The notes: generated by a model from the letters alone, not told the origin. A DNA stretch of 64,000 nucleotides from Sphagnum compactum (GCA_965153455.1 OZ234494.1:9548001-9612000); one strand, 5' to 3'. Counted from the first letter of the stretch, positions 40,741 through 64,000 are shown. Program-made: numbers and translations.

Positions 40741-42120
40741 TTATAATCACTAATGATCTCAATTGAATGACAAACCACCATGTCGTCATGTGAAGGTTGG
40801 TCAACAAATATTTGTATAGCTTGCCTTGTGGATTCTTGTTGAATTAACATGGGAGTGAGATTTAATATAAGTGATGAGTTGTTGATGACAATATTTCTGA
40901 TTCCGTATCAATAATAACTTTTGGAGTGGAATTGGTGTGTTTATCTCCTAAAATGTCTAAAGAATTTGCAGCCTCCACAAAAGTATTAGGCATGTCGAAA
41001 GCATTTAAAGCTTGTCAATGATTGAATCTGCATGAATTGTTGTCCAGAAAAGGGAAAATATTAAGTAATGATTTCAAGAAATAATTGGAGTTAGCATATA
41101 AAATACATGAAAAAGTATGAAAATTTACCTTTTGGAGGAGTTGTAATTTCCACATGTTTATAACATGGGTTGTTAGATTTGTAGAAATTCAAAATATTAG
41201 TAAGTGCAGCATTGCAAACTAAAACTATTTCTCTATAATTACAATGAATTGAACTAATGTTAAAGCCCCAACAATTGAAACTTTGAAACACCCCATTGCT
41301 GCAATGTTGGCAGGAAGAAGGGTTATAGGTGGGGCTAGTGTTGTAGCAAATGCATAACTATGGGAACGAATTAAATGATTTCATCCAAATTTCACAATAG
41401 ATAACCATACATTATTTTGGGCCAATGTTGTCATAGCCAATTCTATCATGGTTAGGGAATGCATTTTTTTGGAAGTATTCCCATATACAATCCATTTGCA
41501 ATGGCAAATTGACGTAGCTCATTATATGAAGTTTTTTGAAGTGATTCAAAACATTTTGTACAAATTGAAAGTTGTGGAAAGTTTGACAATAATGGTGGAT
41601 GCAACAAAATTCCTCCGATTGATAATAACATACCTTCAAAAATCTTGCATGGGGGTTGAAGCGCATAATGGTTCGAAAGAGCTAGTGGGAGGTCTACAAG
41701 AAGTTGAAATTTTTGCCTCATGAATTCTAAACATAATTCATTTGGGAAGTGTTTAGGCAAAGATGACATGGGAACAAGATTGTCACAAACAGAACAAATT
41801 GATTCATCCATTCCTGTTGTTAAACACAATTCAGCCATATCAAATATTTGATGAAGGCAAGATGATTGAACATGACCAATAACATTTTTAGCATCCAATG
41901 ATTTGAGATAAGTTGACATGTGTAATCTTCGGACATTTTCTTCTTTGGTTTCCTTTACACGTTGATTTTGAATATATATCCTAAATTGTTTTTGTTGTTG
42001 TTTTCAAGTTGCAAGAGATTCTTCTGCATTTTTTTTGTGTGCATAATTGTTTTGTTATCTAGTCGACATTCATATTCGATTTAAGATTCATTTGCACATC
42101 GTTTACGCATTCAATTTTGT
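40741..42120 (-). pseudogene. N-terminal part of a Helitron-like Rep/helicase gene (DUF6570-type domain)
   Basis: ICSVCD...ICTKCFESL...FAIANGLYMGILP, SLTMIELAM, LLP...FKVSIVG, FYKSNNPCYKHVEI, MVVCHSIEIISDY. Truncated by the LINE just before the expected FPxLFPxG motif. Confidence 0.75.
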
Positions 42121-43419
42121 TGCAACACTAGGCAATGTTCACATGTCATACATGGTTTAGATGAATCCATTCAATTTTAATATGTTTGCACAACAAGAAA
42201 AGTTTTGAAGGAAAGTTTGGCTTGATACCAAAGGGGCATACTATAATACTTCCTTTGTTGGGTGAAGGGATTAGGGGTGTAGTGGAGAAAGGGGGTACAT
42301 TGGATGAAGCTAATGGCATGTTGCAAGTTGGGACAGATAGTTGCAGACCATGGAATTCTACATGGATGAAGTCATGGGTTCCCAATCTCCAATTGTTTCA
42401 ACCAATTCCAATATGTCAAGATCTTGGCTCTTTTGTTGGTGTCACTATATTCTTGGAACTTGCCATTGTGTCTTCCTTGACTTTCAATACATACTAGAAA
42501 TGGTAGTTGGTTCTGGCAGTCAATTGTAGCAAATCATAATCCATGAATTTTGTATGTTGTTTCCTATAAGGTCAATTAAATACATTTCAACAAATAAATC
42601 TTAAAAGTATTTTAAATTATGACAATCACATGCTTTTATTAGGGATACTTGCATTATGGATTCATGATGACATACATGTGGAAGTCTTTTGTTAGTGATA
42701 GTCTTCCTCTAGACCTGAGCCACTTGAGTATATTGAGTTGTTCATAGGAATATCCATGACAATGTACGAGTAACACATGATTACCATAGGAAAATGGAGT
42801 TAATTATGCATCTTATGAACACATGTTGTTGATAAAAATGTTGGGAAATTCCCTTCTTGGGGTTCAAATGAATTTGGCACTTGTTTCTAATGGTTGAGAA
42901 CAACATCCATGGTCATTTCCCTCATGCATAACATTAAAACTTTGTATGTTGGGGTCTTGTTGTTGATTGTCTTCTTTTGAAGCAAGGTTAATTTGATGAG
43001 TAGATCTTTCTAAAGTTGTATTTTTGCTCTTCAATATTGCCTCAAAAGGGTCTTTACCTATTTTTCACTTCCTTGCCGTAGAAATTACCAATATGTGAAT
43101 TACAACAATACAATGATGTCAAAGATAATTGCAAAGTACCTTTGGAAGTTGCACTATCATACCATCTAGACACCATACACATAAAATCTATACTACTAAG
43201 AAGATCAAATTCTATTTGAATATCTTGACAATGCAACCAGATCTTGATAATTCACAAAAAACTCATGACAAACCTTTGGAAATAAGGAGCACAACATGGT
43301 TTTAAAAATAATGTGTGAAAACTAGTTATGAAATTTCTCCTACATTAAGGAGAGCCCCAACTTGACATCTAATAACACATGATAGTGAGAATTTGAAAAT
43401 CAAAACTTGCATTGTGCAT

Positions 43420-43890
43420 AAACATATTTTGTGGTGCCTTATGCCGGTCATTAATAGAAACCTCCATCTTTTTTTGTGAGCATTATTCAAGCCAAGATCG
43501 TTGCAAAATGTAAACATCCCACATTGCAAGTTGTTTTAGCATAATCAATTCCCCATACCAAATCACTTTCAAAGATGTGTCAGTTAATGAACTTTCTTAA
43601 TGTTGATAATGACAAAAAGGTCAAAACCTAAATAAGCATCCACATTTGTTTGATTGCATATTCATTCTCCTAAATCATTGCATCCCATAATTTGTCATTC
43701 CCATTCTGTTGCAAATACCTTTCCAAGGGCTACCCACAATAACGCGAGTGAATGCATTGTTGAATTCTATGTCTTTTGTGATTCCACCATCAAGCACCAA
43801 GGTTACCAACCTTCTCATTTCCATAGCCTCAAAACCTGTGAAGTGAAATTGGCAACTAGATATATGTAAGTTTGTGTTCATGTTTATTGT
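43420..43890 (-). pseudogene. TOPBP1: BRCT-domain fragment of a TOPBP1/MEI1-like gene, two exons
   Basis: LHISSCQFHFTGFEAMEMRRLVTLVLDGG...FTRVIVGSP|gt (donor at 43718), then VYILQRSWLE*CSQKKMEV. Resembles plant MEI1 LVGFEASEMRKLVNMVRRGGG..THIVVG / WLEDC (recalled). Confidence 0.7.
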
Positions 43891-45578
43891 CAAGTTATTT
43901 TCAAACTAGATTGAGGTTCAATTATTCAATTGTTAATAATCGGTGTAATCCGATCTCCAATATGCATTCATATGATCGCATTAACATTAAGATGAAGAAA
44001 CATGTCCCTTTTGATTTATGCTACATACGTGCTATTATAATATTCATTAATTCATGAAATTCGTTGTTTATAATATTATACATTGTATGCATGGTTTGTT
44101 TTAAGTTTTGGGATATACAAATTTTGATGCATATTTTGAAAATTAGCAAATATTGTTGACTTTATATTACCCAAAAAAAGAACAGAAATTGATTTGACCT
44201 AAAAGATGTCCAAGTAATCAAATCTAGACATTAGAATGAGGAAAATGAATAAGGCATGTTGCAATTTAACTTAACTACCTACATTGACATGAAAAGACAC
44301 ATGAAAAGGCACATGCTAGTGTCTATGGAAGCCTCTTTTGTTGCAAAATATGTGAGAACCAACCAACCAAAACATTCATCTCCATGATAGTAAATGTAGA
44401 TTATGAACCCATTTCATGTGCCATTTCATGTGCCTTTCCAACCATCTCCCTGCTCATACTACCTTAACATGTGTTACATTCTACTTCCATTTATCTTTCC
44501 TTTATAGTGGTCATTGTATCATGCATATGCAAGTAATGTTGAAATGTTTTTAGTGCTTATGTCTATTTGTTGTTAATTTTTTGTTGCATTTGTGGTTTGT
44601 TGCACGTCTTTTATGTGCTTTTGAGTTTATGTTCTTGGTGCTTCTTTCTCATGAGTAGAAAGTTCAAAAATTTGCTTGAATAATGTTATTCCCCAATGCT
44701 TGTTTTTAATTTGGTGTCATTCACTTATGCAAAATTTAATGATAAATTGAAGTCTTTTTGTTTTTTACTCTTGTCCATTTTTTAATGTTCCACACCACTT
44801 TTTTTGTAGTGTAAGAATCTACCTAAGTTTAATTTCCGCATTAGATTTTTAAGAAAAATCATCTGGTGTAGATGTTGAATTATGGCTTGAGATGAATTTA
44901 ACATTTTTTTCTTCCCAAGTTCAAGTTTGTGATATAGTAGGCATTCATGAACTCAGGATGTTAAGAAACAATTCATGATATTAGATCTATCCTATATTGA
45001 AAATTGCAAGTTGCATTTCACTTGGAAATAGTAGTCTTTGATTTATTTGGGGCATAGGAAATTATTTGAAATATCAAGTTTTTGAACACCATCATGATTA
45101 TTAATGAAGGGGAAACATACCAAACAATAAATCAACAAACTTTGTTCTTAAGAATAGGAAATAAGTTTATCATTATGGGAGAGACCAACCTAGTAATTTG
45201 GCAGAGATTCCAAGGGAGCAGTATAGCGCAAGGGTTTGCTTGCCCCTAGCAATTGCATTGACCCACCTTGTACTTTGAGATGGATCATTTGTTTTATGTA
45301 ACTTGGTAACTTCTGTTATTGACCATACTATAAACATATTTGTAAAAATATTGGGAAAATTTTGTGAGAGAAATTGAATTAACAATGCTTATAAAAAAGG
45401 TGGAGTCTTTGTGAACTTTCCAAGCAACACAAAGAAAATACAACAATTTTTTGGCCGCCAAAATACAAAATGGCCTCTCTTTTAAAATGAGTGGCCTCTC
45501 CAAGTGTTCAACTAAGCATTGTAATTCCAGAGTGCACAATGGCATGAAGAACAAAAGGGAACATGAGGGCATTTTCAC

Positions 45579-46133
45579 CTCATTCCCATGCATGTCCATT
45601 GAAGTCTTTAGTTCAACCTAACAAAAAAGAGGCTCATGACCTTTTCCAAGAATTAAATCCAAGAGCTACAAAAAAGTGAAAAATGTTGATAAATCCTTTC
45701 AGCCAATGAATGTCTAAACAAAGTTTATTTTCAAGATTAACTGAATACATACAAAGTACTATCCTCAACAAACATCATGTGGATCATAGATAGTTCACCA
45801 AGCAATCCAACTTGTCATTACATAAACATTGAAAGTCACCAATGGGAACTTATGCTAAATCACCAAAATTGTTAGCTTGAAACTATAGGCAAAGGGTGGT
45901 ATAAAAGTCACACAATATTACATAAATGTAGAACATCCAAAACAATTTACATGCAATCCCTATTGATTCTCCAAATGTTCTATTTGTCACTTTGGGTCAA
46001 GAGTTAGAGCAATATTTACCTTGCTGATTGGAGAAGCAATTGGGAAGAATATAACAAGGAGTACATAGACCATTGGTGCCATAGTTGCACCAACCGCCAA
46101 CCTAAATTTGGAGCAAATTGCTTGAAGTACAAT
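45579..46133 (-). pseudogene. DUF21/CNNM (CBS-DUF) gene fragment, two exons (46020-46133, 45579-45665)
   Basis: ag|IVLQAICSKFRLAVGATMAPMVYVLLVIFFPIASPISK|gt and ag|LLDLILGKGHEPLFC*VELKTSMDMHGNE|gt; canonical splice sites, one stop. Confidence 0.88.
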
Positions 46134-46769
46134 CTAACATCATCTCACATAGCAAATACAATTCTCTTAACCAAGTGGTCTCTTAGAGAATTATAAAGTA
46201 TTCTAGAAAGATACAGATAGTTGAAAAGAAGACACTTGGACATAATGATTTGTATATGCTTGCCAAAAAGCCCAACTCAAAGGTAGGACCCTTTACAGAC
46301 ATGAATGGCTACAGAATGGAGGGTAGAATTCTAGCAGTGAGAATGGCAACACTTGTATTACTCCCTAGGGGTCCTAGTGGAAGTACTCCCTCACAACAAT
46401 TTTCATTGGCGAAAGATTTTTAATTACATTAGTTATAGCTAGAAAAATCAGTTGGAGGTACTGCACCTACCATGCTTCACATACGAATTAGCATTTTCAT
46501 AGGCCAGTTATATCATCAAACCTCTACTATCCAAAACAACTCCTAGCATTGCATGATTAATTTATGATAATTTCAACAATCCTCCATTTATTGAAACTTT
46601 CTTTGCATATTTTAAAATATTATATTCAAACTCCAAAGTTATGAATATAACATGTATCAATTCCTATTGGTAAGAGGAAAAATTGAATTCACCTCCCCAA
46701 ACATGAGAATCAAGGCAATAACAACCCCACATATTCACTTTTGAAATCTGTCCATAATCCTTCACCTAT

Positions 46770-46928
46770 ATTACATTATTGTCTATTGTTGCTTTTTGTA
46801 ACAACAGTAGTCATAGTTGCATAGAAAGTGTGACTCTTAGCAACCTTGTTGAAGTCAAAGATAATGTTACCTTCTTGCCAATCATTATATCTATCAACAC
46901 CAACACCACATTCCAATCCTGCTCCCAC
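46770..46928 (-). pseudogene. IF2: Plastid translation initiation factor IF-2, last exon fragment
   Basis: cag|VGAGLECGVGVDRYNDWQEGNIIFDFNKVAK resembles the IF-2 C-terminal EVxAGLECGIGxDDxxDWxEGDIIEAFN. Confidence 0.85.
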
Positions 46929-48086
46929 CTGTATAGTTGACCACTAGTTCAATATAAGTAACAAACAACAACAAATCTTGTCCAACAATTTGGTTTTCAA
47001 TGGACTTCAATTGAACTAGAAATTTCACAATGTTTGCTATTGTGAATAATGTATCTTCCTAACTTTCACCAATTGGTATGAACATGTTGACAAAATTGCA
47101 GTTACAACACTTTTGCATTCAAGGGTCTAATTGTTTGCCTAATGGATCAATGGACATGATATCTTCAACAAGAACACAATGCTAGGAAACACAAATACGA
47201 TGGGCTAAAGATTAAACCACCTACTATTAACAAACATGTACCTTGCCCTTACCAATAGTTGCCAAGGTCATGCACTTGATGTTGTGATGCATCATATAGA
47301 TAGTAAATACAAAAGCATTGTTGTTAAAACACTTGGGACCAATATTCTCCTAATGTGTTGTGAATAAAGTAACTAGATGATTTCCCATTTTGAACTTCCA
47401 CTAGTCTACCACCTACTTAGCAAATTCCTTGATATTCCTTGGATTTTTCCTTTGCAGGGAACATGCAGTCACTGTTATGCTTAATTGTTTGAAATTGTCA
47501 TTCTTGTTCCTTTTTTACCTCTTTCAGATTTGAGGACGACAAATGTGGGGCACAAATGTTTACATAGATGATTCTAACAGTGTAGCATGTAAGAGATCAA
47601 CATACATGAAAATTCTTTCACACCTTGCTTACTTTCTTGTGTCCAAATGTTTGCTTACATGCATGTTTGTGTTAGTCCATGTTGTTTTAGGTAAAGGGGA
47701 TGCTTTTGAAACATTTTCAATTAGGGTTTTGGCTCCTAGACAATGTGTACATATGTGACACCCACTTAATTCTTGGTTTGGTGCAATGTAGTTTTGATGC
47801 ACACATGTTACTACATTCCCACATCCACTCTTTCACTGCGTCCTATTTCTGAGCTTCATGCCACAATTCAGATCTTTCCACCTCAAGAAAGTGTCCTTCT
47901 AGTCCCTCCAACATTTTAAGTTTGATGTAGTATGACCAAACTTGTTAAATGTTTACAAATTTTCCAATCCTTATTTTATGAAGTGTGGGTTGTTCTGTTG
48001 TGTTTTACTGTTTCCTGTTGTCCGCAGATTACAACATTGTGACATTAAAAATCCTTATTCCCAGTTTGTACTAAAATGCAGATGGG

Positions 48087-48266
48087 TGTTGGAAAAGTAA
48101 AATAGAGGAAATGAATTAAATTTTATTCATAAAAGCTTATATTTGAAGGAACACAACCTTCAATATCTAAAGGTCTAGAAAAGTTGTGTCTTTCTATGAA
48201 TGTCTTTTTATAGTAACTAACCATATGTACAAACTATTGAACTATTGTAATTATATGTATCTAACA
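48087..48266 (-). repeat. Copia 3' LTR (180 bp)
   Basis: tgttggaaaag...tatctaaca; direct repeat of 53172-53355. Confidence 0.95.
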
Positions 48267-51200
48267 CTCCCACTAGTTCATTAATTGTACTATCATTTAA
48301 TGTTCTATAGTTCATCCAAAGCTTGAAATCTTTTTCACTTGTAATTATGTGATGCTCCCACATGATTAAATTGCCTTGGAAAGTCTTTTGTTGATTGAGT
48401 TTGGATTTACCATTATGCCTCCCACTCCAAAGGCTATCAAGGATTGGTAAATTATGAAAGGCCCGAACAACAAAAGTTGGTGTAAAATGTGTTTGAGCCA
48501 TGAAGGCCTGAATTTTGGGTGATGATGACTCAAGGGAGGGGTCTTGGAGCTTAAAAATAGGAAAAGAAATCATCCCCAAGGCCTGAATACAAGAATAATG
48601 GCGCTATTTAAATACAATTTTAGTAAAAATATCCGCAACCATTTCAATAGTTGGAATATATTCCAGTGTAATTTGTTGAGCCAAAATTTGATCTCTAGTA
48701 AAATGGTATTGAGTGTCAATATGCATACTGTAGGAATGAAATTTGGGATTGGCAGTGAGAGCAATTGCACTATGATTATTTGAATAAATTTATTTGGTGT
48801 GGTTTGTGGAAATCCAATTTCCGAAAGTAACTTATGAATCCAAATGGCTTCAATTGTGGTTTTGGATAAAGCCATATACTCCAATTCAATGCTGCATAAA
48901 GCTACAAATGTCTGTTTTTTGCTAGACCAAGTGACTACACCACCTGCCAAGAGAAAACAATAGCCTGGAAGTAGATAGTTTTGTATCTTGATCACGGCCC
49001 AATCTGCATAAGAAAAACCATAAAAAAAATTCCCATTAGCTTGATGTGGATACTGATGCCAAGATTGGCAGTACCTTTGATGTAACGCAAGGTGCGCTTA
49101 GTTCCTTGCAATGTCGAAGGCCAGGAGTAGAAAGAAATTGAGCTAGGGGAGTTGACAATGTATGTGGTGTCTGGTTTGGTATATACACTATTGTGCATCA
49201 GGCTGCCCATTGCTTGGGCATAAAGTACAAAGGCCATTTGTCCTTGTTCATCTGGGGAGTGTGGATAGTCATATTTGGAAAGTCTATGTCTAGTTTCAAG
49301 GGGAGTGGAAATAACATGAAAATTGAACATGTTGTATCAGGGTAACACACCATTTAAATAATTATTTTGTGAAATAAGAAGCCATTTGTTGATTCGGTTA
49401 TGGATGATCCAAAGACCAACAACATAATAGATGTCGCCTTCAAAAGTCATCTCGAACTCCTTTTCGCGAGTCAACAACTTGGCAGCAAGAACCAAATTTG
49501 GTGTGACCACAATCCCATCATCCACATATATGGCCAAAATGATGAAATTATCATTATCATGAACTTGGATGTATATGGTTGGATCTGCTTCAGTTTGTTT
49601 AAAATTGATGATGAAGAAAGGTGTCCAATCTTTCATACCATGCCCTTGAAGATTGGCATAGGATGTAGATGGACTTTTGCACTTCACAAACTTGTTGAAG
49701 GTTTGACTTTGGGATGTCTAAACCTTCAAGAAGTTTCATAGATATGTCTTCATGTAGGATTCCATGTAGGAAAGTTGTTTTGATATCAAATTGGTGAACC
49801 TCAAAATCAAAATGTGCAACTAATGTTAATAATATTCTTATGGAATTTATTTTTACTAATGGGGAAATAGTTTCTCCAAAATCTAGGCTTGCAGTATGTG
49901 TAAACCCTTTTGCCACAAGGCATGCTTTATATTTATTTATATTACCATGTGGATTATATTTTATTTTGAACACCCATTGCTAGAGACAAGTTTTCTATCC
50001 TTGGGCAATGTGGTAAGGATCTAAGTGTTATTTTTCTTGTAAGGAATCTAACTCTGATTGGATGGCCTTTTCCCAATGTAAGCCATTTGACCCACTAAGG
50101 GCTTCCATATATGTGGTGGGTTTTGAATTTGAAAATCTTTAATGAAATAAGGCTTTAGGACATTTACTAGTACCTAGGGTCAATTTTCCTTGAATTGTTT
50201 CTATAAGTCTATTGGGCTTTTTAATGACTCTTTGTGTTCGTCTGGGATTTTGTCTCAAATGGCTTTTTTCATGTGTTGTTAATATTTCAGGCATAGATTG
50301 GACTTCATGTTAGTCATCATTAGTACTTAATCTGGAAATTTCTTCCATGATACTAGGATTTGGGTTAAGTACATGATTATTTGGAGATGGAAAATTATCA
50401 TAATTAATTAATGATGCAGTTGAATCTATTGGTGTGATGTGACTAAGTGATGTGTTCATAGGATGAATTGGAGAAGGTAAAGGAGAAGGTAAATTGGGAA
50501 TAATATTTGAACTTATAGGATGAGGAGGACCTATGAAACTTTTGAGAAATTTTTTACTAAAAGGAAGTCATGCATTTGATTGAATGGTTTTATAGGTATA
50601 TCCTTGTGTGGCAAATAGATAGAGGTTTCATAAAAAATAACATCTTTGGAAATTATAATTTGTTTTGTGGATTTAACTTGGATTTTATATGTTTTAGATT
50701 GTTCACTATATCCAAGAAAAATGCATTCATGGGAATGTGATTCTAACTTGTGTTGGGATTCTTTAGGAATTAATGCATAGGCTATACATCCAAAGATTTT
50801 CAAATGTGTAAGTGTAGGGGAAATTCTTATCCTAACTTCATAAAGGCTTTGATTTTCTAAAATGGCTTTTGTCGGACATCTATTTTGAAGGTAGTTGGGA
50901 GTTAGTAATGATTCCCCCCAATAAGACTTTGGTAAGAGAGAATGGAAGAGCATAATGAGGACTGCCCCAATCAAAGTCTTGTTCTTCCTTTCACAAACTC
51001 CATTTTGTTGAGGGATATGAGGTGTGGTGAATTGGCGTCGAATACAATGATTTTGAAAAAAGTTATTGAATTCATTAGATTTATATTGATCGCCATTATC
51101 AATTCTCAACATTGTTATCTTTTTCCCAATTTGATTTTCAACTTTTGCTTTATATTGTTGAAATTTGGAAAACACTTCAACTTTATTTTTAAATTTTCAA

Positions 51201-53159
51201 CTTCAAGATTTTGGTGTGTCTAGACCTATCATCTATGAAGGTAACAAAATACATACACCCTAAAAAAGTAGGAGTTCTTAAGGGATCACATACATCACTA
51301 TGTACTAATTCTAAAATATTTTGAGCTTTGGAGGCTCCTTCCTTAGGAAATTTAATATGGTGTTGCTTGCCTTTAATACAAGATGGACAAATTGATAACA
51401 TTTTTCTCATCAAAGGATCCCAATCCCTTATACATAAACTGGATTTCTTTTAGTTTGTGTTGATTTATATGACCTAGCCCCATATGCCATAAATATGCTA
51501 TGTTGAGGTGTGTGAGATTTAATTTGGTTTGTATTTTATTTTCTTGTTTGTTTGTTTGTAAAGATCTGCTTCCAAGATATATTTAGCAATTTGTTGACCA
51601 TGTGAATTTTTAAGAAAGCAATTACCAGATTTGATGAGGATTTCACCACTAGCATGATCAAATTGCTTTGTTGAGAAAAGGTTCTTTCGGATTCCCGGCA
51701 CATGCAACACATTAGTTACTTCTTTTATAGTACCATCATTTAGTTTTATGCAAACTTCCTCTTGTCCAATTATTTCATCAGTTGAATTATCCCCTAAATA
51801 AACAAATTGGCCTTTCTCCCACTTACTATATGACACAAATGACTCAATGTCATGGGTCATGCGGTTTGTCACTCCGGTATCAACATACCAAGTGTTATCA
51901 CTATCATCAACCATTATCAAAGCTGCCACATACAATTGATTATGTTTGGTAGCTATATTGGAGCATGTTACTTGGCTTTTCTTTAGCAATACATACTCTG
52001 CAATCTTTAATTTCATGACCCATTTTCTTACATTTGAAACATCGAATTTTCTTCCTAGGTGTTTCAAATCTTGGGTTATTACTTGTTGAGGGATTAAAAT
52101 TATCCTTACCTTTTAAGGACTACTGGAGGAAAGGTGGTCCAACTCTTTGGATCCTTCCTTTGGGGTAATATGGCCTTTTGCCAACATACAAGGCTGACAT
52201 ACTATCAGTTGTATGAGTTACATTTTTCATTAGTACTTCTTCTTGAAGAAGGTCTGTGATGAGGGATTGCAAAGTAATATTAGGTTGCCTCCACATGGAT
52301 TATAAATGTCCTATATGATAAGGGCATAGATCGCATTAAGGATAAAATTGCATTGTCATCTGTTACTGGAGCACCGACAGCTGACAATTGTTCTAGTAAG
52401 GATCAAAAAGATTGAATATGTTTGACGACACTTTCACCTTCTTTCATTTTTGTCTTTTAAAAACATTTTTGGTGATTGCATCTTGACTTTCAAACATTCT
52501 AATTGATTCTTGCCAAGCATCATGTGATGTAATTTTTGATTGTACATTGGAAACAACGTTGTTATCTAAGCAATTATTAATGACTTAAATGGCTATTGCA
52601 TCCTTGTCATCCCATTCAGCAATACTACCTGTTCTTGCAGCTGGTAAGACTGCAGCTCCTGCGGCAATTTGAACAACTGTAGGAGCAATGGGTTTTGCTT
52701 ACGTACCATTGACGTAAGGCCATAATTTTTCTGACTTAAATAACAAAGTTAATCTGTGTTTCCATATGTTGAAATAAGTTCCATCAAATTTCAGAATATG
52801 ACTGATGTCAATTTTTGTGTTCATTGACATCTTTTGTCAAATTCTTCAGATTCTTAAATTTATTAATTTTTAATCAAGGCATTCAGATTCCACTTTAATT
52901 TTCTGGAATTATTTATTTGTAACATAGTATGTTCATTGAAACATTTAACAAATGTTGTAAAGGTATTTCCTTCTCTGAAAAATGTGCTGTATGTGCCAGG
53001 GCCCAATTTGACACCAATTTCTCCCATTGCTTGTTGATCCATGCTAGGAGTATCAAATCTGCAATATTAAAGAACTTCCTTTAATTTATTTAAAGATGAG
53101 AGAAATTCATATCAGCATGATTTGACCAAAAAATTACTTTCATTACTTTAAATGTCTCA

Positions 53160-53171
53160 GCTCTGATACCA
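53160..53171 (-). promoter_or_regulatory. Primer binding site (tRNA-iMet)
   Basis: Minus strand TGGTATCAGAGC immediately inside the 5' LTR. Confidence 0.95.
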
Positions 53172-53355
53172 TGTTGGAAAAGTAAAGTAGAGGAAATGAA
53201 TTAAATTTTATCGATAAAAGCTTCTCCTGTATACTTAATGAAGGAACACAACCTTCATTATCTAAAGGTCTAGAAGAGTTGTGTCTTTCTATGAATGTCT
53301 CTTTATTGTAACTATGTACAAACTATCGAACTACTGTAATTATATGTATCTAACA
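53172..53355 (-). repeat. Copia 5' LTR (184 bp)
   Basis: About 10 substitutions plus small indels versus the other LTR, counted by eye. Confidence 0.95.
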
Positions 53356-53528
53356 ATGGGCTCATGTTTGTGTAGTGTACACATTAATGCTGAGGAACAG
53401 TCTTAGATCTCATCCCTGGGGAGGGGGAAGTGAGTTATGTATCTAACAATGGGCTCATGTTTGTGTAGCGTACACATTAATGCTGAGGAACAGTCTTAGA
53501 TCTTGTCCCTGGGGAGGGGGAAGTGAGT
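53343..53528. repeat. 93-bp tandem duplication spanning LTR end, TSD and an HDC1 exon start
   Basis: 53343-53435 and 53436-53528 are near-identical (tatgtatctaacaatggg...ggaagtgagt). Confidence 0.95.
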
Positions 53529-54159
53529 GCAGCTACAGAGTAGAATGCTGCCAAATCATCAAGGTCAGTGTTCGGCCCATTTTTTGCACATGCAAACTTT
53601 TCAACCTGGATGTGAGACGTTTGGTACAATATGTAACATGGGCATGGAGTTCGGCTGTGGAGGTGCAATTATGATTTTTGTGAGAGTGCTATCTGCCAGA
53701 GGCCAGGTTTTGAGTGGTGTACATAGCAACTAATATCCACACTAAAGTTGAGCTTAAAACTTTAGTGATTGTGCATGGGGATACATTATGTTTCTTATGT
53801 TGATATTTTGACATGTCAATGAATGGATGCCAGGCAGGAGGTGGGAGCATAGTGCTGAAACCATGTTTGACACACACCTGATGTTGCCACTACCCTTGGT
53901 CCTGCTGCCTCGGAATGGACTGTTAGCACCAGAGCTGCATGTTCAGTGAGCAACCCCATTCTGCATCTCTCCTGTTCACCTCTATAAAGACAGCTTCACA
54001 ACATAGGCACTCTGGCGGTGTTAAGCTTCCTGCTACTCCTGGGAATTGAATGACATTCAGGACTGACTTACAGACCTTTCACCAGAAACATTCATATTTC
54101 ACAAGTAGGGCACAACATGCTGTGGTCCTGGATGATGGAACAGAGGGTTTTGACTAACA

Positions 54160-54490
54160 TTTGCACTCCATCCTTGCTCATTTTGCAAGCTCCAGTCTGC
54201 TCCTGTACTCATCAACATCTCCACGGCATCACCATCACCAAGACAAACTGCCACATGCAAGGGTGTTTCCCGACCAGGAACATCATGCCTGTCAATAACT
54301 TTAGACACATCATTGCTTGCTGCTCAGCTTCCAGATATTGTGACTCCATGGAAACCTCACCAAGTCTTGCAGGCTCCAGTAATGTGGAAAGGATGCAACA
54401 CAGGGCAGCATGGTCTCACTGGGCCACAGCAGCGTGTACTTGACTATGTGCATACATTGCATGATCAACTCCTACAAACTGAGCCGTATG
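54160..54490 (-). pseudogene. Plant ANKRD13-like ankyrin-repeat gene, N-terminal fragment
   Basis: YAHSQVHAAVAQ*DHAAL...GEV...SKVIDRHDVPGRETPLHVAV...LMSTGADWSLQNEQGWSA; one stop and one frameshift. Confidence 0.9.
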
Positions 54491-56795
54491 GTCTTCTTCC
54501 AGTTTCCAAGTTCTTCACAGATGTGAAGACGGTTCACAATACTTCCCTATAGATGATACCAGGTGCCTACCACTAAAGCCTGCCTAATCAAGTCCTGTTG
54601 CTCATCAGTAGCACACCCCACAGATACCTCCAACAATACCCTAGACACAATTGTCACAGTCTTAACCAATGCTACTTTCATCATCACTAGCAACAGACTC
54701 CCTACTGTTGATATCCCTACACATGATCCCACAATCCGATACTGTGACCATGTTCAACAAGTGTTGAAGCTCTCCAAGTCCTGTAAACTTAGGTCAGAGT
54801 CTTCTTAGGGTTTGCTTTGACACTAGCAAGACACAGTTCAAGCAAGCCCAGTCTTAACACCACTGGAATTGAAGAATCATCCAGCACATGCAAGACCCTA
54901 CTACCACCTTCTCAAGGCTGCCAATCAAGTTCTCTGACATAGCTGCTGGCCGCCAACCAGCATCCATGCCACATTCCTTAGAATCACAAAGCAGGCTTGC
55001 TGTTACACCCTTGATGCACCAAATAACTGCCACATTACCCTTATTGCATGTCAGTCAATGCCCTAATCCCTCCCTCTCACTGTGCTCCTGTCGATTGGAA
55101 ACTACTCTCTCTCTCTCTCTCCCTGTCTTCCTTCTCTCTTGTGTGCTCCATCGCCATTGGCGTTGTAATTGCCAAAGCAATCAAACAAGCTTCTCAGAAA
55201 CTGCATTACATGACTCCTTAATACACAAACTCTCTTTGTCTCCCTCTTCTCCATACCACCTCCTCTGATGCTCCACTGTATCTTACAGTTTTTGTCTCAC
55301 TCTGAAAAACACTTCTCTCTTATCATCCTTCCTACAATTGGTATGTCTTTAGGAAGACTCAAACAGATTAAGCCACCATGATCAAGGCCCCCCCCCAAAA
55401 AAAACAGAAACAACAATGCAAGAACATCAGAACACTATCGTTACAAGTTTTTTTAGGGGCAAAAAAAAAATTCTGCTGCTGCACTGCAGCTACAACAACA
55501 AGAAGCCAGAAGAAGCCTCAAATGCTCAAAACTAGCTCAAAGAACACCACTGGGTGATCAGATCCCAAAGGCAGGGTCTGCCAGTGCCACAACCAAGCAA
55601 TCAAGAAGAAGAATTCAAGCCCAGCGGTTTGCAAAGGTTCCTGCATCCCTATTCTTTTCTGGCCCTACTGGATTTGGAATGTGGTAGCCATCCAAAGCCC
55701 CCAGCACAACACCAGGTCCATTTCATACTGCAGGGCAGGGGCAGCTTAGTTCTCACACAGTGCCTTGAGCTGTGGCCGCACCCTCACATCAAACACTACT
55801 AGCTTAGGGATTAGAAGTAATGGCAGTATGCACTAGAGCGATATTGCTATTCTAATGCTTGCTATCATGGCTGTTAGCAGTGACTGACACGAGGAGCAGC
55901 AGCAACAATTTCAGACAATCGGGTTAGATTATTAATTCCTACAAGCTTGGAAGTTGCAACATGTACCTCTATGGCTTGATAGGGAGAAGGAGCAGGGCCA
56001 TTGGGAAATCACTGGCACTAGAAAAGTAAAGACAATAGATCTACCCTCTGGTATTTTTTGTCCATTCAATAGTCTATACAGCAACCACAATTGCTTCCAA
56101 GAAGCACATACAACAAAATAGATTACTCCTTTCAACCACATGCACATTGAAAAGACTCTTATTTCTAGCATAAGTTCCTTGGTTCTAGACCAACTTCTGC
56201 CATAGTTTGCAAATGGCCTTCCTTTATGAGAAACTGTCTGCTGAAGGGGGAAGGAAAAATGCAGCAAGAGGACTAATCCAAAGCAATGATTAAGATGTAA
56301 TCAGATTACATCTGCCTGCTCTAATAATGGTTCAATCATCTAAATAAAAGGTTTATTTCTAAAAATTATATGAGGCAAATACACAGCTCTGATACATCGT
56401 ATGATACTCCAGCAATGTAGCTTAATGAAAAATCAATAATATCTTTCTTGTCAAAATTAAATACGTATATTTTCCAATTTCATTACAAGAAAGCAAAATA
56501 ATTGAATTAAATAGTCTACTTACTTCAAAATGCACCATGTTGAGTGATTTCTTCCTCTTGCATGTCCGCTTCTTGCATCAACAGCTTTACACCAAGTAAT
56601 TGTAGAGAAATTCCATGACTCAACTTTTTGTCAATAAAAGTAAACCTAACTGCCCCAATCTTCCACTCACTCCAATTACTACTTTTGATATCTCGTGAGA
56701 AACACATAAAAATCTCCATATGAATTGTATTATTCAAAATCTCTTTATGAATTATGACAGCATGACCTTGGCCATGACACATCTGAATTGCCCAC

Positions 56796-56927
56796 CTTGT
56801 TGATTGCAATAACAATTGGTAAATTAGCAACCTTGGCATGAATTATGGCCTCCATCATCAGCATCCACCACAATAATTGCAAGACACATGTAGCGACAGT
56901 CATATGTCCCTTGTAGGGGACTTGTAC
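56796..56927 (-). pseudogene. IF2: Plastid IF-2 GTPase-domain fragment with internal deletions
   Basis: VQVPYKG...CV [LDTPGH..RARGA missing] AIIVVDADDG [gap] EAIIHAKVANLPIVIAINK|gt. Confidence 0.85.
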
Positions 56928-57622
56928 CTCAAGTTCATGCACATGCTTCATCTGGTTTTCTGACTGTTGTGCCTGCATCCAGGTGATTTCATGCTGTAAT
57001 TGTTACATCTGCACCACCAGTCACAAATGCCCACAAAGAGTCAATTTTCAACATAATTAACTCATGCTCTTGTTTTACAGCAAGGTCTGCCCAGCCTGCC
57101 TGATTGCTTAGGATCCATTATCCACAAAAACCCTGAATCAACCTTGAGTTGGCCATATTAGTCCATATTACCTTGACATCAGATTTGGCCTTGTGCCGCT
57201 CAAGATGCTGGGACTCCTGCTCCCACCGCTGCTTTTTTAAGGCTATCAACTGATCTGTGATCTGCTTCACCTTCTCTTCATATTGTTCATGTAGACTGTT
57301 TCTTCTCCTCAAATCCTCTGGGAGCATTCTTGTCAATAGCCTCCAATTCTTTTTCAATGCCTCTACTTCCTCCTCGTTCTGTCTCATCTGCAGTATACGA
57401 ACCATGTGAGGAAGTGATGTGGAGCTACAACCACCAAGACCCGCATGCAAAAATACCCTAAAAGTTGTTAGCTGTAAACTCCACTCATCAAACCTGTTAA
57501 GCAGAGATAAGGCCATTGATGAGAAAAAATTTGGGTATTGAGCAGACCTTTGCTTCAAGCTCAAGCATGCGGGATTCATACTGCTGAGTCAAGTGCTTGG
57601 CCTCTGCTTCTAAGTTCTTTAC
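56928..57622 (-). pseudogene. Kinesin-4-like coiled-coil stalk fragment, three exons (57548-57622, 57172-57387, 56928-57008)
   Basis: KHLTQQYESRMLELEAK|gt, LHEQYEEKVKQITDQLIALKKQ...KAKSDVK|gt, QLQHEITWMQAQQ. The pattern fits KIF4/KIF21-type stalks, but coiled coils are hard to assign. Confidence 0.6.
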
Positions 57623-59386
57623 CTGATGAGGAGCTGCAGTAAGCATACCAATTGCTATCTCCAAATTAAATCTGAAATTTAGGCAATGTTGCAAACAAAA
57701 ACTAAAATCTATTCACAAAGAATTTCTTGAAATTCAAGTACACTGAGACTCATGCAATCTGATTGCCTCAACATGAGAATGCTGCTTTCATTTTCAGAGG
57801 TTGATGTTGTCAGTGTGCCCTCACATATCAAAGCATGCTTGATGGCAGCTCTCCAGTCTGTAAGTTCACATCTCCAAGCATGCCATGCTCAATGCGCTTG
57901 CAGGAGTTACTGTTGAACACAGTTAAGGCAAGGTGTAAAAGTGGCACAAGCCAGGAAATGGTATGGCATGTGCGGCTCAGTGACTACTCAACTGGCATCT
58001 TGTCCAATTTTCCTGTAGAAAATGGTAGGGCATGAAGGACACAGTACACAAACCCTACAATCCACTGCCCACAGAAAAACTCAGATCATTTGCTACCTGA
58101 GGTTTCCACCTTGTTCTACATGACAAATGGTAATGTGCTGCAAAATGGTAGTCCAAGTAGAAGATTAGTTATTTGGCTATCCTACTCTTTGTAAGCTACT
58201 ATAGTACTCAGGAAAATGAGTAATACTTTCTCACTGCTCTGCCTTGATGAAAGCGTCATTTCTCATACAGCTCACCACCAACTAGCTTGGAGTGGTCATA
58301 AATCCATTCATTTTTCTGGTTGATGAGCACCATGTCCTCAAATTCAGCATCCCAGATGACATTGGCATCACTAACACGGTAGTGTTGCAAATAAAAGACA
58401 CATTGCATTGATGTCCTTTCCAAACCAATCTGCAACGAACTCCCATTCTTTGAGACACAGAAGCACAAAATACCAACACCTTATCCTCACTTCAAGTTGC
58501 AACAAGCTTGTGATGGTAAGCTTCATTTTCATTGTAGCTTTTTAGCACACTAGTTACCTAAGACTAGAAGAAGATGGATCATAAGATGAGCCTCATGAAA
58601 ATGACATTGAGAAGTATACTTTTCTCTTTCTCATGAGCCTTTCCTCTTCACTCCCAAATTTGTACAAATTCTAGCTCTTACAAACATGTACCTACCTTTT
58701 CTTGCACAGGTGAGTTAATACCTACAAACCAACAACATTGTTCCATAAGTAAAAAAAGTGGTACCTTAAGTGCATTTTGGATTATCTGAACACCAACTTT
58801 TTAATCAAAATTTGCAGTTGGGAGCTTATCAAGATCTCATGAGGCATACAAAAGTGCCACACCTCCACCTAGAGACAGTCACACACAAACAGATGAGTTT
58901 TCTAATCAATACCCACAATGAGCACACACAAGCAAGACTGGGATTACAAAACTCTACAGTTAGGCAATATTTAAGCGATGATCTGTGCTGGGGTGAGACT
59001 CATACTGGGAACTATGTGTTCCTCCACTGCTGCCTTGGTGTCACACGTTCTTCTCATTAACCTCTACTTCACTTGCTCCACCAATCTGCTATCAGTAATA
59101 CCATCTGAGTGACCCAAACAAAAGGCAAGCACAAAGGCTCCCCAAGTATGAAATGGAAAAAAATACTTTTACATGTACAGATTTGAGAACTTTTGCATCC
59201 CTCCCTGATCTACATGAGTTGACTACCTACATATGCATCTATTATATGCATTGGTGCGGCACAACCTTGCATGCCCAATGGTGATGGTCACATTGCGCTG
59301 TGAGGCATTCTACCACTGTCAGCCAGGTTTTTCTCCAGCAGTAAAATGAGGAGAACTTGAAAGTGCAGAGAGCAATGATATACTAC

Positions 59387-60299
59387 CTGATCTGCAGGTG
59401 TGAAGAAGTTATATTTACAGGTGCGGCAGCACTGTCTTCATCCACTGGTGTAACCTCCTTCACAACAACGTTACTCTGCTCCTCCTGTGACGGACTCCAC
59501 ACGGCAGCTTCAGAGCTTTGAAAGCAACTCTGGGTCTGTCTAGCTGCAACTTCAGTTTTACCCTCTCCCGCAACTCTCAGCTGGACCTTGTCTTCATTCA
59601 TGCCCAATTGTGATGGTGCAACCAGATGGAAGGCAATGCTTGCTGACTGCCTTTTATCTATAACAACATGATTTGTCACACTCTCAACACTTGATACTTG
59701 TGAGTCTATCTCTGATGGTAAATTCTCCTTCAATGACTCCTGTTCATTGATATTATTGGCCTTGTTGCACTGTCCTGAATTAATGCCAGTGTCCTGTAGA
59801 ATCCGGCCTGCCACAGTAGCCAACAGCTCAAAAAACCCTGTGCGGGCAACCACTGCTGACTGGCACCATGCAGCTTCTCCTCAGCCCTGCACACACATCA
59901 ATGCACAACCTGAACATCAACATGTTTGTTCATATCCAAAGCTTGAAATCCATATATCAATCAGAAACAAAGGGGAAAATGAAGAGCCTTGCACAGTTAC
60001 AGAAATGACATGAACGAGCAAATAAATGCATCCTGCCTCACTTACAGGAAATCAAATGAGGAGAAGTGTGAAGAGCAGGTAAAATCAGACTCAAAACAAA
60101 AGAAAGTGTCTACAGAAAAACAAATGCTGCATATTATGCAACAGCTTCAGATGGAGACAACCAGTAAAGACCCATGGAAGCAGAAAGGGAACCCATTGAA
60201 AGAAGCAATCAATACCCGAGAAGAGCGCATCGCCCGGGGTAGTGCAGGCCCATCATATCCAGGAGACCCACCACTGAATCTGCGTCCTCGAGCTTCCAT
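59387..60299 (-). pseudogene. TRP: Telomere repeat-binding protein (TRP/TRFL family) 5' fragment, two coding exons (60216-60299, 59387-59886)
   Basis: MEARGRRFSGGSPGYDGPALPRAMRSSR|gt...ag|G*GEAA...FFELLATVAGRILQD. Matches the family motifs GY..P..PRA.RS.R and F(D/E)LLATVAGKLL; premature TGA. Confidence 0.8.
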
Positions 60300-61768
60300 C
60301 TTCCCCTCACACTACTACCCTTGCATCCAACTTGACATTCTTCCAATGGAATTACACAATTGTTGTCATATATGATCTCTTGAATGCAAAAACCGTGTTC
60401 CAAAATTCAATATCGTGTTCTCAGGATTGTTGTTCCATAGGGACTTCAAATGTTGACCACCAGACGTACAGCCCACAGCCAGAACAAAAATTATCTTCAG
60501 ATATTGTTCCCCATTTTGGTGGATTCTTCTGTACAGGAACAGAACAACACAAAAGCAACATTCAGTAAACTTGGCAGTTATGAAGCTTCCAAAATTACAG
60601 AAATAGTCAAATTTACAGCCTCTCAGAGATCTCCAGTAGACAAACACACAATCTGCTTCATTTCCTTGAAGAAGGTGAAGGAAAATCAAAGAATTCCTAA
60701 AGATTGGAACAAAACCCAATCATAGGTTCTTCCAACTCAGTCTTGCAGCAATGGCTGTGGTTCTGGAACCATTGAAGAAGACACATAACTGCATATTACT
60801 CCTTTGAAATCTCAGTGCCAAACCCCAATCAGTGGTTCCTTTCTTGTTTCCATGGTGCTTAACCAACTTCTCAATCCAATCAAAGAACAAAGGACCAAAG
60901 AGGCTCAAACAAAAGAGGCCTGCACATTTGTGAGATAACATGAAGCAGCACCACAACAGTGAAAACAAACAATGCATTATTCCAAGACTGGCATTGAACC
61001 ATGGCAATCCAACAGCATGGATGTCCATGGTGACTTCATAGCATGCTCATTGATCTAATGGGTTACACCTGGGGGGCAGCTTAAATCACAGACAGAAAGT
61101 GTTCAATCTGTTAATTGGTTGCATCCCAGAGAGTAAAACCTCTCTATTGGTAGTCCTCAGGATCACTGCAAAAACCTTCCGGGAATGAGGGTAACAAACA
61201 GGATCAAAGTTCTGACGTACTACCTACAACTCTTAAAAACCCATACTGTAACTCTTTTATGTTTCTCAACACACTTTCTTCAAACAGAAGCTCTCTCCCA
61301 AAAAAATTCTGACTCTACTGGGAAAAACAAATATTCTGAACAAAAAAAAGCGCAGCAGCAGCAGCATCTGACATCATCATCATCATCATCCTACCACCAG
61401 GGCAAATTTTTTTGTGAAAAATAAAACTTATTAGTGACATAATAATAAGCAAGAGACATTTGAGATCTCAACAAGCTCAACACGACTACTGATACAGAAA
61501 TTCCCCCTCCCCACAAAACAAAGAGAAGAAGCAATAAGATGCTTTCTCCCAGACAGAGAGAGTACTGCCTGCCATGCCACTCGCTCACATACATGCTTCC
61601 TTGGAAAACCATTGTTGTTGTTGAATTGGCAGGCAAAACCTAACCAACTAACCAGAAAGTGTCCTCCTTCACATGGACAATACTTCTGCTTGTTCTTCTT
61701 CATGTAGCAAAGACTTGCAACCGAGAGAGAAGCTCTTCCTAGCGAGCGAGAGAGAGAGAGAAACATAC

Positions 61769-62127
61769 CCAGGACTCCTTCCCTGGAATGGAACGACGAA
61801 AGAAGAAATTCATAATCGCCATAGAATCCTCTGGCATGTCCATCCAGAGCTTCAACCCTAATTCAGCAAATGACAAAAGTGCAGCATAATCACCCTGCAC
61901 AAAAGAAATTCAGCCAACATTGTCAACCCACTGAAATATCCCACTTCAATCAGCTTAGGTGAAAAACTCACATTACTGAAGATTCAAGAAAATAAGTCCA
62001 GAAACCTCTGCACAGGCAAGAAGCATTTTCGCAAGTGCTTGCCTTTTGGAAAATGACAGGCTCTTAGTGAGGCCAAAATCCAGAAGAATGGGCTTAAAAG
62101 GGGGCTCCTTGCTCACAAGAAAATTTC
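61769..62127 (-). pseudogene. ABC1/UbiB atypical kinase (ABC1K11-like) fragment, two exons (62006-62127, 61769-61894)
   Basis: ag|GNFLVSKEPPFKPILLDFGLTKSLSFSKRQALAKMLLACAE|gt, 111-nt intron, ag|GDYAALLSFAELGLKLWMDMPEDSMAIMNFFFRRSIP..|gt. Confidence 0.88.
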
Positions 62128-62189
62128 CTGCATGCACCCATACCCTGGTCATGAAAGAATGATTCCCAGAATTGTTTGCAGAATTTGCA

Positions 62190-62745
62190 ACAGTTGGTTG
62201 CATGCGTGATGATCATCCTGTTATCCCTTGTCCAGCAAATGTGTCTGCGAAAACCTGTATATTGGCATCAGGAGGCTCACCAAACAAGTCACCACCATAA
62301 TTCTGATCCAAAGAATCATCAGGTGGGTCCTGCAACCAGGAGATCATCTCATCATCTTGGATGTTGATGATTGGTGATGTCACCTGGTGGCCCCCAGCTG
62401 CAATTACAAAAGAAGTAGTAGTTTCATCATCATCACTGTTCTTGTTGCTGGCTGCTGCCACTTCCAGCATCTCTTGTGTCATTGATGGCAACACACCATC
62501 ACCGTCCTCTTCTATCTCTTGTCCAACACCCCAACTAGATGCATAACTCAGCTGCTGTGCATTACAACCTTCAGCACTCACACCTTGCATCTCAAAATGC
62601 CTATTTTCTACATCCCCATTTTCCATCCAAACCATTTCCAGACTGTCTTGGTCAGGCCTGCATACACAAAACCAATAGCCCAAAAGAAAGAACATCATCA
62701 AAGCCCAACTCTAAGTCTAGTTCCCCATCTCTTTTTGCCATGCAG
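62190..62745 (-). pseudogene. PIF: Phytochrome-interacting factor (PIF)-like N-terminal fragment lacking the bHLH
   Basis: RPDQDSLEMVWMENGDV (degenerate APB-like ELxWENGQ) and QDDEMISWLQDPPDDSLDQNYGGDLFGE (PIF EDEMxxWLxYPxDD motif). Confidence 0.75.
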
Positions 62746-64000
62746 TGTTGCCAACCAAAACCCATGAAGAAAATTGCATTGCAAAACCTCACGAACCAAC
62801 CAGGGATATATTTATTTGAACACACAAGAACAAGAACATGACTTGGATTGAATAACAACTTGATGCCAGACTTCTTGCACAGCCAGACTTCTTACGCAGA
62901 TGCCAAGTCAGGGAGGTGATCTCTTCTTTGGTGGTGGTGGATTGAATCGCCTTTTGCTTTGACTGCTGCTGCTGGCGTTGTGTTTGTCACAGCATCGAGC
63001 ATTCACCAATCCAGCAGGTATGCCATTTACAAAGACTCATGTGGCTCTGAAATCCAATTGAAAGTCTCCTGGGTTTGCAATGCAGTAGCTTCAGACATTA
63101 TGCAGGAGGAAGAGGAGAAGGAGGAGCTCAGAATCACACAGAAACAAAAGAAAAAGAAGAAGAAGAAGAAAGAAATACTGTAGCAAGAATTTCAGGGGAA
63201 GAAAGCTCAGCACACACCTTGCTTGAGGGATTTCTTCTCAAGCTCTCACTATTATCTGCTGCTGCAACACACCACCTTGCTTGAAGGATTTTTCTCAAGT
63301 TTTCATGACTTTGCACTATTTGCTGCTGCTGCTGCTGCACACCATCTTGGTTTTTTGAAGGATTTCTGAAGACCTTTCAATGAGTGCTCCATAGCTTCTA
63401 TTGGGTTTGAGATTTGGAGCAAACCTATGCTTTTCTTGACACATAGGTAGTGAGTGTCCTTGAGAGCGTGTGTCAAACAGTTGAGATATCCCACATATTG
63501 GGTCTGAAATCTAGTGTTTGTGGTGGTTTGCCAACCCCCCACCCCCCAACAGATCAGTAACTAGTAATTCCACAATCCCAAAACTTGCACAAACAAGGCT
63601 GCCACAGCAACAACAAAAGCAGCAAGAATTGGGTGCATTGTGATATCAATTCTTGACTTCTTGAAAAGCTTTGCGGGAACACACTGGCCATCATGGGTAC
63701 CATCCAGCAGCAACAGTAAACACTGCCTACATGCAAGTGAAGCTTTGTTCCAATGCAAAGAACAGGCCTCTATGATCTCCATGGAAGGAGAAATACTAGA
63801 GCTGAATCCTATCTTCAAACTCAGAGCCAACACTCTCACTGTTGTTGTTAGCATCAATGTCCAAAAGATGGTGTAAAGAAACAAGGGCTGCACTGCAAGT
63901 TTCAAGAAGAATGACTGCCCTGCCTGTATTTGTGAAACAGAGCAATCCAAGAATCAGGATCACACTGCATGTCTGATGCACATATCTACATCAAAAAGAA

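Follow-up and report, generated by a model that had tools for sequence, protein, structure and literature searches.

The right-hand end of a 64,000-nucleotide (nt) stretch of DNA from Sphagnum compactum (GCA_965153455.1 OZ234494.1:9548001-9612000; hereafter the window, whose coordinates are used throughout) holds a mosaic of short pieces of unrelated genes, spread over about 20 kb and accompanied by several transposable elements (Table 1). The window is transposon-rich nuclear DNA of a peat moss, the sequencing runs that contain it are moss or 'moss metagenome' runs, and the database proteins that best match its pieces bear Sphagnum names, which agrees with the probable bryophyte source named in an earlier note made from the sequence alone. 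That note had described incomplete, intron-bearing fragments of unrelated genes, nearly all on the minus strand, beside a Helitron-like DUF6570 gene. The mosaic itself was confirmed: when stop-to-stop open reading frames (ORFs) were tested singly (Pfam, PDB, Atlas, a representative search and tblastn), eight of the ten named pieces received homology support, namely PIF, TRP, kinesin, ABC1K, an ankyrin exon, IF-2 twice and, weakly, CNNM, and every supported piece is incomplete and lies on the minus strand. Two names did less well: TopBP1 is marginal, and HDC1 was not borne out, its ORF at 46187-46420 (+) having no Pfam match. The DUF6570 similarity and its strand stood, but what is left there is a frameshifted relic and not a gene. 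For 30 more ORFs on both strands in and around the mosaic, Pfam gave nothing relevant. Plus-sense RNA reads from some other gene match about 46316-46329.

Table 1. Features of the mosaic and of its surroundings in the window.
Feature	Position	Strand	Content or evidence
Upstream exon of array-type transcripts	63425-64000 (runs off the window)	-	Positions 954-1529 of transcript L006 match 64000-63425 at 97%
PIF 5' fragment	62143-63026	-	Start codon, exon 1 (63026-62898), intron 1, 174 codons of exon 2 (62656-62143)
ABC1-kinase (ABC1K) internal fragment	61765-62142	-	15 nt of intron, exon 62127-62004, intron, exon 61894-61769, a few nt of the next intron
TRP (telomere-repeat-binding protein) 5' fragment, 2.57 kb	59197-61761	-	Upstream region to 190 nt of intron 2
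Segment of unknown origin past the TRP junction	57620-59196	-	Includes exon 58870-58832 of annotated array-type models
Kinesin fragment (kinesin-4-like coiled-coil)	57169-57610	-	Exons 57610-57545 and 57390-57169, intron retained
IF-2 G-domain exon piece (NKxD region)	56766-56855	-	IF-2 in 6 of 6 PDB matches, best E 0.0035
Ankyrin-repeat exon	54102-54323	-	Pfam Ank, E 1e-5
Copia long terminal repeat (LTR) retrotransposon inserted in the mosaic	48087-53355	-	Pfam RVT_2 (3e-28) and integrase SH3 domain (2e-26)
IF-2 C-terminal exon piece	46824-46931	-	IF-2 in 7 of 9 PDB matches, best E 0.0048
CNNM/DUF21 exon piece (weak)	45990-46133	-	Pfam CNNM, E 0.007
BRCT-like (TopBP1-like) exon piece (marginal)	43678-43905	-	One PDB match, TopBP1 BRCT domain, E 0.29; no Pfam match
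DUF6570 N-terminal relic of a Helitron-type protein, frameshifted	41091-42003	-	Two frames; Pfam E 0.019 for 41091-41357
LINE-like (long interspersed nuclear element-like) retroelement	34802-40907	-	Pfam RVT_1, E 1.7e-14; reverse transcriptase and endonuclease-like ORFs

At the right of the mosaic, a 584-aa (amino acid) phytochrome-interacting factor, P0001, matches the PIF piece by tblastn with residues 1-43 at 63026-62898 and residues 45-218 at 62656-62141 (93% identity, E 5e-103), and a 793-aa full-length PIF, P0034, whose sequence includes the bHLH region, aligns in the same way; the identities of the two proteins to the fragment are 92-100%. The ABC1K piece carries a Pfam match to PF03109 (E 9.5e-7) within 61976-62212. 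The TRP piece is made up of an upstream region, 5' untranslated region and exon 1 (coding part 60299-60216), intron 1, exon 2 (59886-59387) and the beginning of intron 2. Residues 1-28 of the Sphagnum TRP proteins P0080-P0082 align to exon 1 at 96% identity, and exon 2 is 84-88% identical to the same proteins by tblastn, or 91-94% in the search tool's own alignment (against P0080, 59904-59638, E 4e-42); for the TRP fragment these three proteins are put at 94-96% protein identity. The 165-aa ORF at 59386-59880 gave neither a Pfam match nor a usable Atlas match; the representative search identified it as the N-terminal exon of TRPs carrying Ubiquitin_TPR1 and Myb domains. In the segment of unknown origin beyond, a 38-nt stretch with two AAGCTT sites (58491-58528) is highly repeated, its summed contig depth being 556-673 where most other bins have about 50-130. 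Loose ends flank it in the DNA runs as well as in the RNA run, and it resembles either a conserved motif or the core of a short repeat of dispersed type.

Further to the left lie the kinesin and IF-2 pieces. The two kinesin exons match the kinesins P0009-P0014 by tblastn at 91% (57610-57545) and 65% identity (57390-57169), with E of about 2e-20 and 5e-6. With E. coli IF-2 as the query, residues 480-509 fall on the G-domain piece and residues 854-889 on the C-terminal piece, at E 0.003 each with the next best match at E 12; the two pieces are 10 kb apart, and no intermediate IF-2 exons were found with this query, which is distant and of low power. At 46855 and 46860 in the C-terminal piece, 11-12 of 11-12 RNA reads carry other letters. 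Two stretches of about 40 nt, 45625-45667 and 55668-55707, are matched by 34-59 RNA reads that run into unrelated sequence on both sides, with three fixed differences in all 55-59 reads of the first; they appear to be small exon pieces of genes expressed elsewhere, which would add donors beyond the ten named.

Three of the pieces abut, the PIF 5' part meeting ABC1K at 62143/62142 and ABC1K meeting the TRP 5' part at about 61761, with TRP ending at 59197, and from PIF through ABC1K and TRP to the next segment the joins contain neither spacer nor transposon sequence. On the minus strand at the PIF break, the PIF frame ends ...ATGACCAGG, followed by 16 nt (GTATGGGTGCATGCAG) and then by the ABC1K exon. 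The break lies in the middle of the long exon 2, because P0028, an uninterrupted genomic ORF of the PIF parent, shows parental exon 2 as one continuous frame. In the Hi-C DNA, six reads that stem from another ABC1K copy follow the window as far as 62142 and depart from it there, so the ABC1K piece begins 15 nt before its exon. The overlap between partners at this junction is at most 1-2 nt. The junction of ABC1K with TRP falls a few bases past the second ABC1K exon, in a CT-rich stretch that is similar in both partners. For TRP, a metagenome scan yielded three parent-type loci (L003, L004 and L005) that are collinear with 61761-59197 at 95.5-95.7% identity (blastn) and unrelated to the window past both ends; this collinearity covers 2575 bp, including 1.2 kb upstream of the gene, and the downstream break lies 190 nt inside intron 2, where the piece is joined to sequence of unknown origin. 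Introns are retained in PIF (intron 1), in TRP (intron 1) and, one each, in kinesin and ABC1K. By their structure, then, the pieces are evidently DNA-level, intron-bearing copies of unrelated genes set in one orientation. A processed (retro) pseudogene is ruled out by the introns in PIF, TRP, kinesin and ABC1K and by the 1.2 kb of copied TRP upstream region.

The mosaic is transcribed from its minus strand into polyadenylated RNA. Raw reads from a poly(A) RNA run (about 12% of the run's data, accepted at 90% identity or more) cover 53655-60991 and 61659-63649 at depths of 3.5-33, with a depth of 0.3 in 60992-61658 and about zero over the copia element. The first mate lies almost always on the plus strand, which by the usual convention for stranded libraries means minus-strand RNA. 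Among 1639 reads, 619 match at 99% or more, 423 at 95-99% and 597 at 90-95%; at sites that discriminate between versions of the sequence, the window's letter is carried by 18 of 31, 37 of 68, 30 of 54, 30 of 55 and 26 of 45 reads. About half of the reads thus have the window's letter, so RNA of the window's own type exists, and the RNA mapping that the earlier note had named as a check came out in favor of the locus being expressed. Depth is 37 at 57349, in a kinesin exon, against 1-4 over 57399-57530, in the kinesin intron, a contrast that suggests use of the inherited intron. In relatives the splicing is visible directly: L006, a 2079-nt transcript from a metatranscriptome-like source, joins 64000-63425, 60530-60215 and 59887 onward at canonical GT-AG sites of the window, and in this relative the PIF, ABC1K and TRP upstream sequences are removed as a 2.9-kb intron. 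Splicing at inherited GT-AG sites is therefore shown in relatives, and in the window it is suggested by depth. At a distance of 55 kb from the mosaic, a stretch that is likewise on the minus strand (8466-8742) shares 92% identity with nucleotides 1-277 of L006 and stops at a GT in the position of the L006 splice; it has the look of a paralogous first exon or of a repeat that carries a promoter.

The mosaic is not confined to one genome. A contig of separate Sphagnum origin, L002, aligns with 59978-58172 at 96% identity and spans the 59197 junction, and in a 259-nt alignment a CGA-to-TGA stop (59883-59881) and one further change are common to the window, L002 and L006 and missing from L003-L005. 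Two annotated gene models are of the array type, that is, built like the mosaic: P0016 (S. fallax BDL97_02G068000, 118 aa) and P0051 (S. jensenii, 141 aa) both splice TRP exon 2 (at 59387) to a non-TRP exon at 58870. Logan contigs from a second organism, B, are about 99% identical to the window (for example, 25 differences in 3324 bp), and those from a third, C, 93-97%. The array-type copies look orthologous, and by these comparisons the mosaic predates the split of these Sphagnum lineages and behaves as one, apparently low-copy, locus. Depth in the Hi-C raw reads lies at about 0.2-5.7 per bin and does not rise above that of the copia element or the flanks, which excludes a high-copy element; at this depth one copy looks the same as two or three. 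The metagenome scan returned five loci, two of the array type (one DNA, one RNA) and the three parent-type ones. In organism C, contigs leave 45651-47651, where the CNNM and IF-2 C-terminal pieces lie, nearly uncovered (depth 1.5-3.9 against about 70-90 in the bins to the left), and this part is either deleted or strongly diverged in that lineage. Most of the joints listed in the read mapping rest on short sides (20-42 nt) of organism C contigs and were set aside.

The pieces have also decayed. Compared with P0001 and P0080, there are three in-frame stops (63005-63003, 62215-62213 and 59883-59881); the parent has arginine at each, and all three are changes of CGA to TGA. Against L003, the TRP piece is 96.2% identical in exon 2, 97.8% and 98.4% in its introns and 94.9% in the upstream region. 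Nothing in these alignments points to purifying selection on the coding parts, and the TRP piece is evolving as neutral sequence would. Heavy methylation-driven decay is not apparent, with 27 CpG in the TRP piece and in its parent alike and with CpG transitions making up 6 of 63 window-specific changes.

The surroundings are crowded with other elements. The copia retrotransposon, absent from the earlier note, takes up 5.3 kb of the 20-kb span and splits the mosaic; its LTRs of about 180 nt (48087-48266 and 53172-53355) are bordered by the target-site duplication ATGGG. Despite this clean duplication the two LTRs agree at only about 86% when gaps are included, and at 94-95% within ungapped blocks. 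One contig of organism B, which is about 99% identical to the window elsewhere, links 48086 to 53457 as an empty copia site would, and a 93-nt tandem duplication at 53343-53528 covers the LTR end, the target-site duplication and flank. To the left of the copia insertion, from 43.4 to 48.1 kb, the mosaic has sparse pieces and low RNA depth, and at the variant sites listed there all RNA reads carry the other letter. The LINE-like element, whose right limit near 40.9 kb is set by ORFs only, comes within a few hundred bases of the DUF6570 relic on its downstream side, and a second copy stands inverted at 1-4509 (+); the two are 93.5-96% identical over 40331-38244 and 37151-34802 (blastn) and, 30 kb apart, flank AT-rich DNA of 26-36% G+C. 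Within the window there is also a low-complexity tract of A/T runs (26168-27059) with open frames of 130-210 aa on both strands, which is not a gene.

Taken together, these observations lead us to favor, with a probability of about one half, a fixed and apparently low-copy transduplicate mosaic in the Sphagnum genome, built and transcribed in the following way. Pieces of genes on other chromosomes would have been copied as DNA with their introns, two of them with promoters, and set one after another in the same orientation with hardly any filler between them. RNA synthesis probably begins upstream of the window, and the captured 5' regions of TRP and PIF may be further start sites; transcripts would traverse the pieces and be spliced at parental splice sites, giving polyadenylated chimeric RNAs with short ORFs only, either non-coding or coding for junk. 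As for the vehicle, our best single guess, at somewhat less than even odds, is a Helitron-like rolling-circle element, by now decayed, that took up the pieces step by step, and the remaining probability for the vehicle would be shared by repair-synthesis copying independent of transposons, another transposon and in-situ gene relics. The cargo is of the Helitron type, consisting of intron-bearing pieces of host genes mostly in the element's orientation. The DUF6570 relic lies 1.7 kb left of the leftmost piece on the strand of the mosaic, and 22 of 30 Atlas matches for its ORF at 41455-42003 are clusters labelled DUF6570; the same ORF has no Pfam match at E of 1 or below. Helitron-like elements are reported in a Sphagnum genome (PMC11417382). 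We regard the Helitron idea as unproven and not refuted, since the 5' end of any such element would fall past the right edge of the window.

Several points weigh against this account. Neither a Helitron_like_N (Rep/HUH) domain nor a PIF1 helicase was found by Pfam in any of 60 ORFs; the ORFs scanned were at least 45-80 aa long, and badly decayed remains could escape such a scan. No credible end made of a hairpin and CTRR turned up between 24 and 64 kb, where two minus-strand candidates stood against 0.24 expected by simulation. Cargo does not usually sit where the mosaic sits, upstream of the DUF6570 relic. Base composition differs within the mosaic, at 32-35% G+C in its left part (43.4-48.1 kb) and 40-46% in its right part, and the two parts also differ in expression. 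There is no sign of extra copies either in Hi-C depth (at most about 5.7 per bin) or among the five loci of the metagenome scan. On the RNA side, parent transcripts add to the measured depth because reads were accepted from 90% identity, and among the joints listed there was no splice joint from the poly(A) RNA run. A single age for all pieces is also hard to maintain: PIF and TRP are 93-96% identical to their parents, and for the main kinesin exon the closest kinesin annotated in Sphagnum gives no more than 65% identity, a value that the Marchantia kinesin equals. Either the pieces are of very unequal age or the true kinesin parent is unannotated.

Three candidates for Helitron parts were looked at and set aside. 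The ORF at 24765-25073 (-), which by eye resembled a PIF1-helicase C-terminus, has only irrelevant weak Pfam matches and no PDB match, and the two hairpin and CTRR candidates, at 49198 inside the copia element and at 35238 inside the LINE-like repeat, have 6-bp stems and CTGA.

The strongest rival to a transposon-built mosaic does without a transposon: double-strand-break repair with repeated template switching, whether synthesis-dependent or microhomology-mediated, could have copied several loci into one site. The abrupt junctions free of transposon sequence, the CT-rich similarity at ABC1K/TRP, the minimal overlap at PIF/ABC1K and the occupation of a single locus all speak for it, as does the failure to find Helitron ends, a target-site duplication or terminal inverted repeats. 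On the last point, 36-64 kb contains no inverted repeat of 40 nt or more, with the right end lying outside the window, and none of 14 short inverted pairs (70-90% complementarity) stands at a segment border. Yet repair does not predict the common orientation of at least eight pieces, and the unequal divergence of the pieces suggests several events; the filler DNA known from plants, moreover, is short and has few donors, and the mosaic amounts to some 15 kb from at least ten. We consider a repair origin unlikely, though worth keeping in view.

It is also conceivable, if rather improbable, that the older pieces (kinesin and perhaps the IF-2 G piece) are what is left of a whole-genome or segmental duplication, a fractionated block or in-situ relics to which younger pieces were added later. 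The low identity of kinesin to its nearest Sphagnum gene would fit, and two S. fallax locus tags, 02G068000 on chromosome 2 and 03G066500 on chromosome 3, carry index numbers close to each other, a putative hint of homeology. Against this stands the 93-96% identity of TRP and PIF to intact parents. Foreign pieces, moreover, lie between the two IF-2 pieces, with no intermediate IF-2 exon found by the distant query, and the C-terminal one looks young, as its matching RNA reads come from a gene at least 90% alike. The positions of the parents also count against it. In S. jensenii the array-type model lies on a record of 30.9 Mb, the TRP parents on records of 24.9 and 24.0 Mb, the nearest kinesin on one of 23.0 Mb and a distant TRP paralog on one of 15.6 Mb; since these lengths differ, they are different chromosomes, with the TRP parents apart from both the array and kinesin. 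These positions cover the TRP and kinesin parents, and for these genes they contradict a single syntenic block of parents, one of the alternatives that the earlier note had offered.

The note's own preference, one giant and still recognizable Helitron-like element with the DUF6570 gene and the whole 20 kb and more as its cargo, now seems distinctly improbable. Its attractions are the shared orientation of the supported pieces and the DUF6570 relic and the origin of intron-bearing pieces from dispersed parents. What speaks against it is that the DUF6570 relic is frameshifted, that neither Rep or helicase nor convincing termini nor terminal inverted repeats came to light, that the mosaic seems to be single-copy and orthologous across species with no sign of many copies, and that copia and LINE-like insertions and the change in base composition part its sections. 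The weakest explanation, that the junctions are assembly chimeras, has nothing found in its support, short Logan contigs not spanning every junction, and can be set aside almost entirely, as the independent metagenome contig L002 spans the 59197 junction, the independent transcript L006 and the gene models of two species share the chimeric structure, and organism B contigs follow the window for several kb at about 99% identity.

Among the routes by which plants gain new exon combinations and regulatory RNAs are mosaics of captured gene pieces. The present case offers junctions at base level, two pieces whose parents are known, occurrence in more than one Sphagnum lineage and expression, making the locus a dated, testable case of mosaic formation in bryophytes. 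It also bears on annotation, in that the 'hypothetical protein' models of S. fallax (118 aa) and S. jensenii (141 aa) are read from a pseudogene mosaic. A more ambitious version is a long shot: a Helitron-like element of more than 22 kb would have built an exon mosaic of ten or more genes in an early Sphagnum ancestor, and the mosaic would have been kept for millions of years as a spliced, polyadenylated unit possibly acting on its parent genes. If that were true, it could act on PIF light signalling, TRP telomere binding and an ABC1 kinase via regulatory RNA or short N-terminal peptides, and would be a case of transposon cargo domesticated by a bryophyte.

Gene-fragment mosaics are a known feature of plant genomes and are well described in grasses; for mosses we came upon no description of them, in a literature search not aimed at proving their absence. 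Among systems that produce such structures, template switching by LINE reverse transcriptase makes chimeric retrocopies, in which pieces of several genes are likewise fused, and LINE-like elements do lie near our locus. Unlike retrocopies, however, the mosaic retains introns and an untranscribed upstream region, and the three junctions inspected show no poly(A) tracts, although no dedicated search for them was made. Pack-MULEs, such as those of rice, and Pack-CACTA are transposons with terminal inverted repeats that carry gene fragments, often with 5' ends and promoters, and are often transcribed. The mosaic resembles them in its gene fragments, its 5' ends and promoters and its transcription, and differs in that no terminal inverted repeats or target-site duplications were found around it in the window, beyond which its right end lies. 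Closest to it are the gene-fragment Helitrons of maize and other plants, which give rise to chimeric transcripts from captured gene pieces. The Sphagnum mosaic differs from these in that no termini, Rep, helicase or copy family was found, in that it is old, fixed and shared between species in a moss host, and in that its cargo would lie upstream of the transposase relic. What the two have in common is nevertheless considerable: intron-bearing pieces of unlinked genes abut in one orientation, they give chimeric spliced RNAs, and a relic of a Helitron protein lies alongside.

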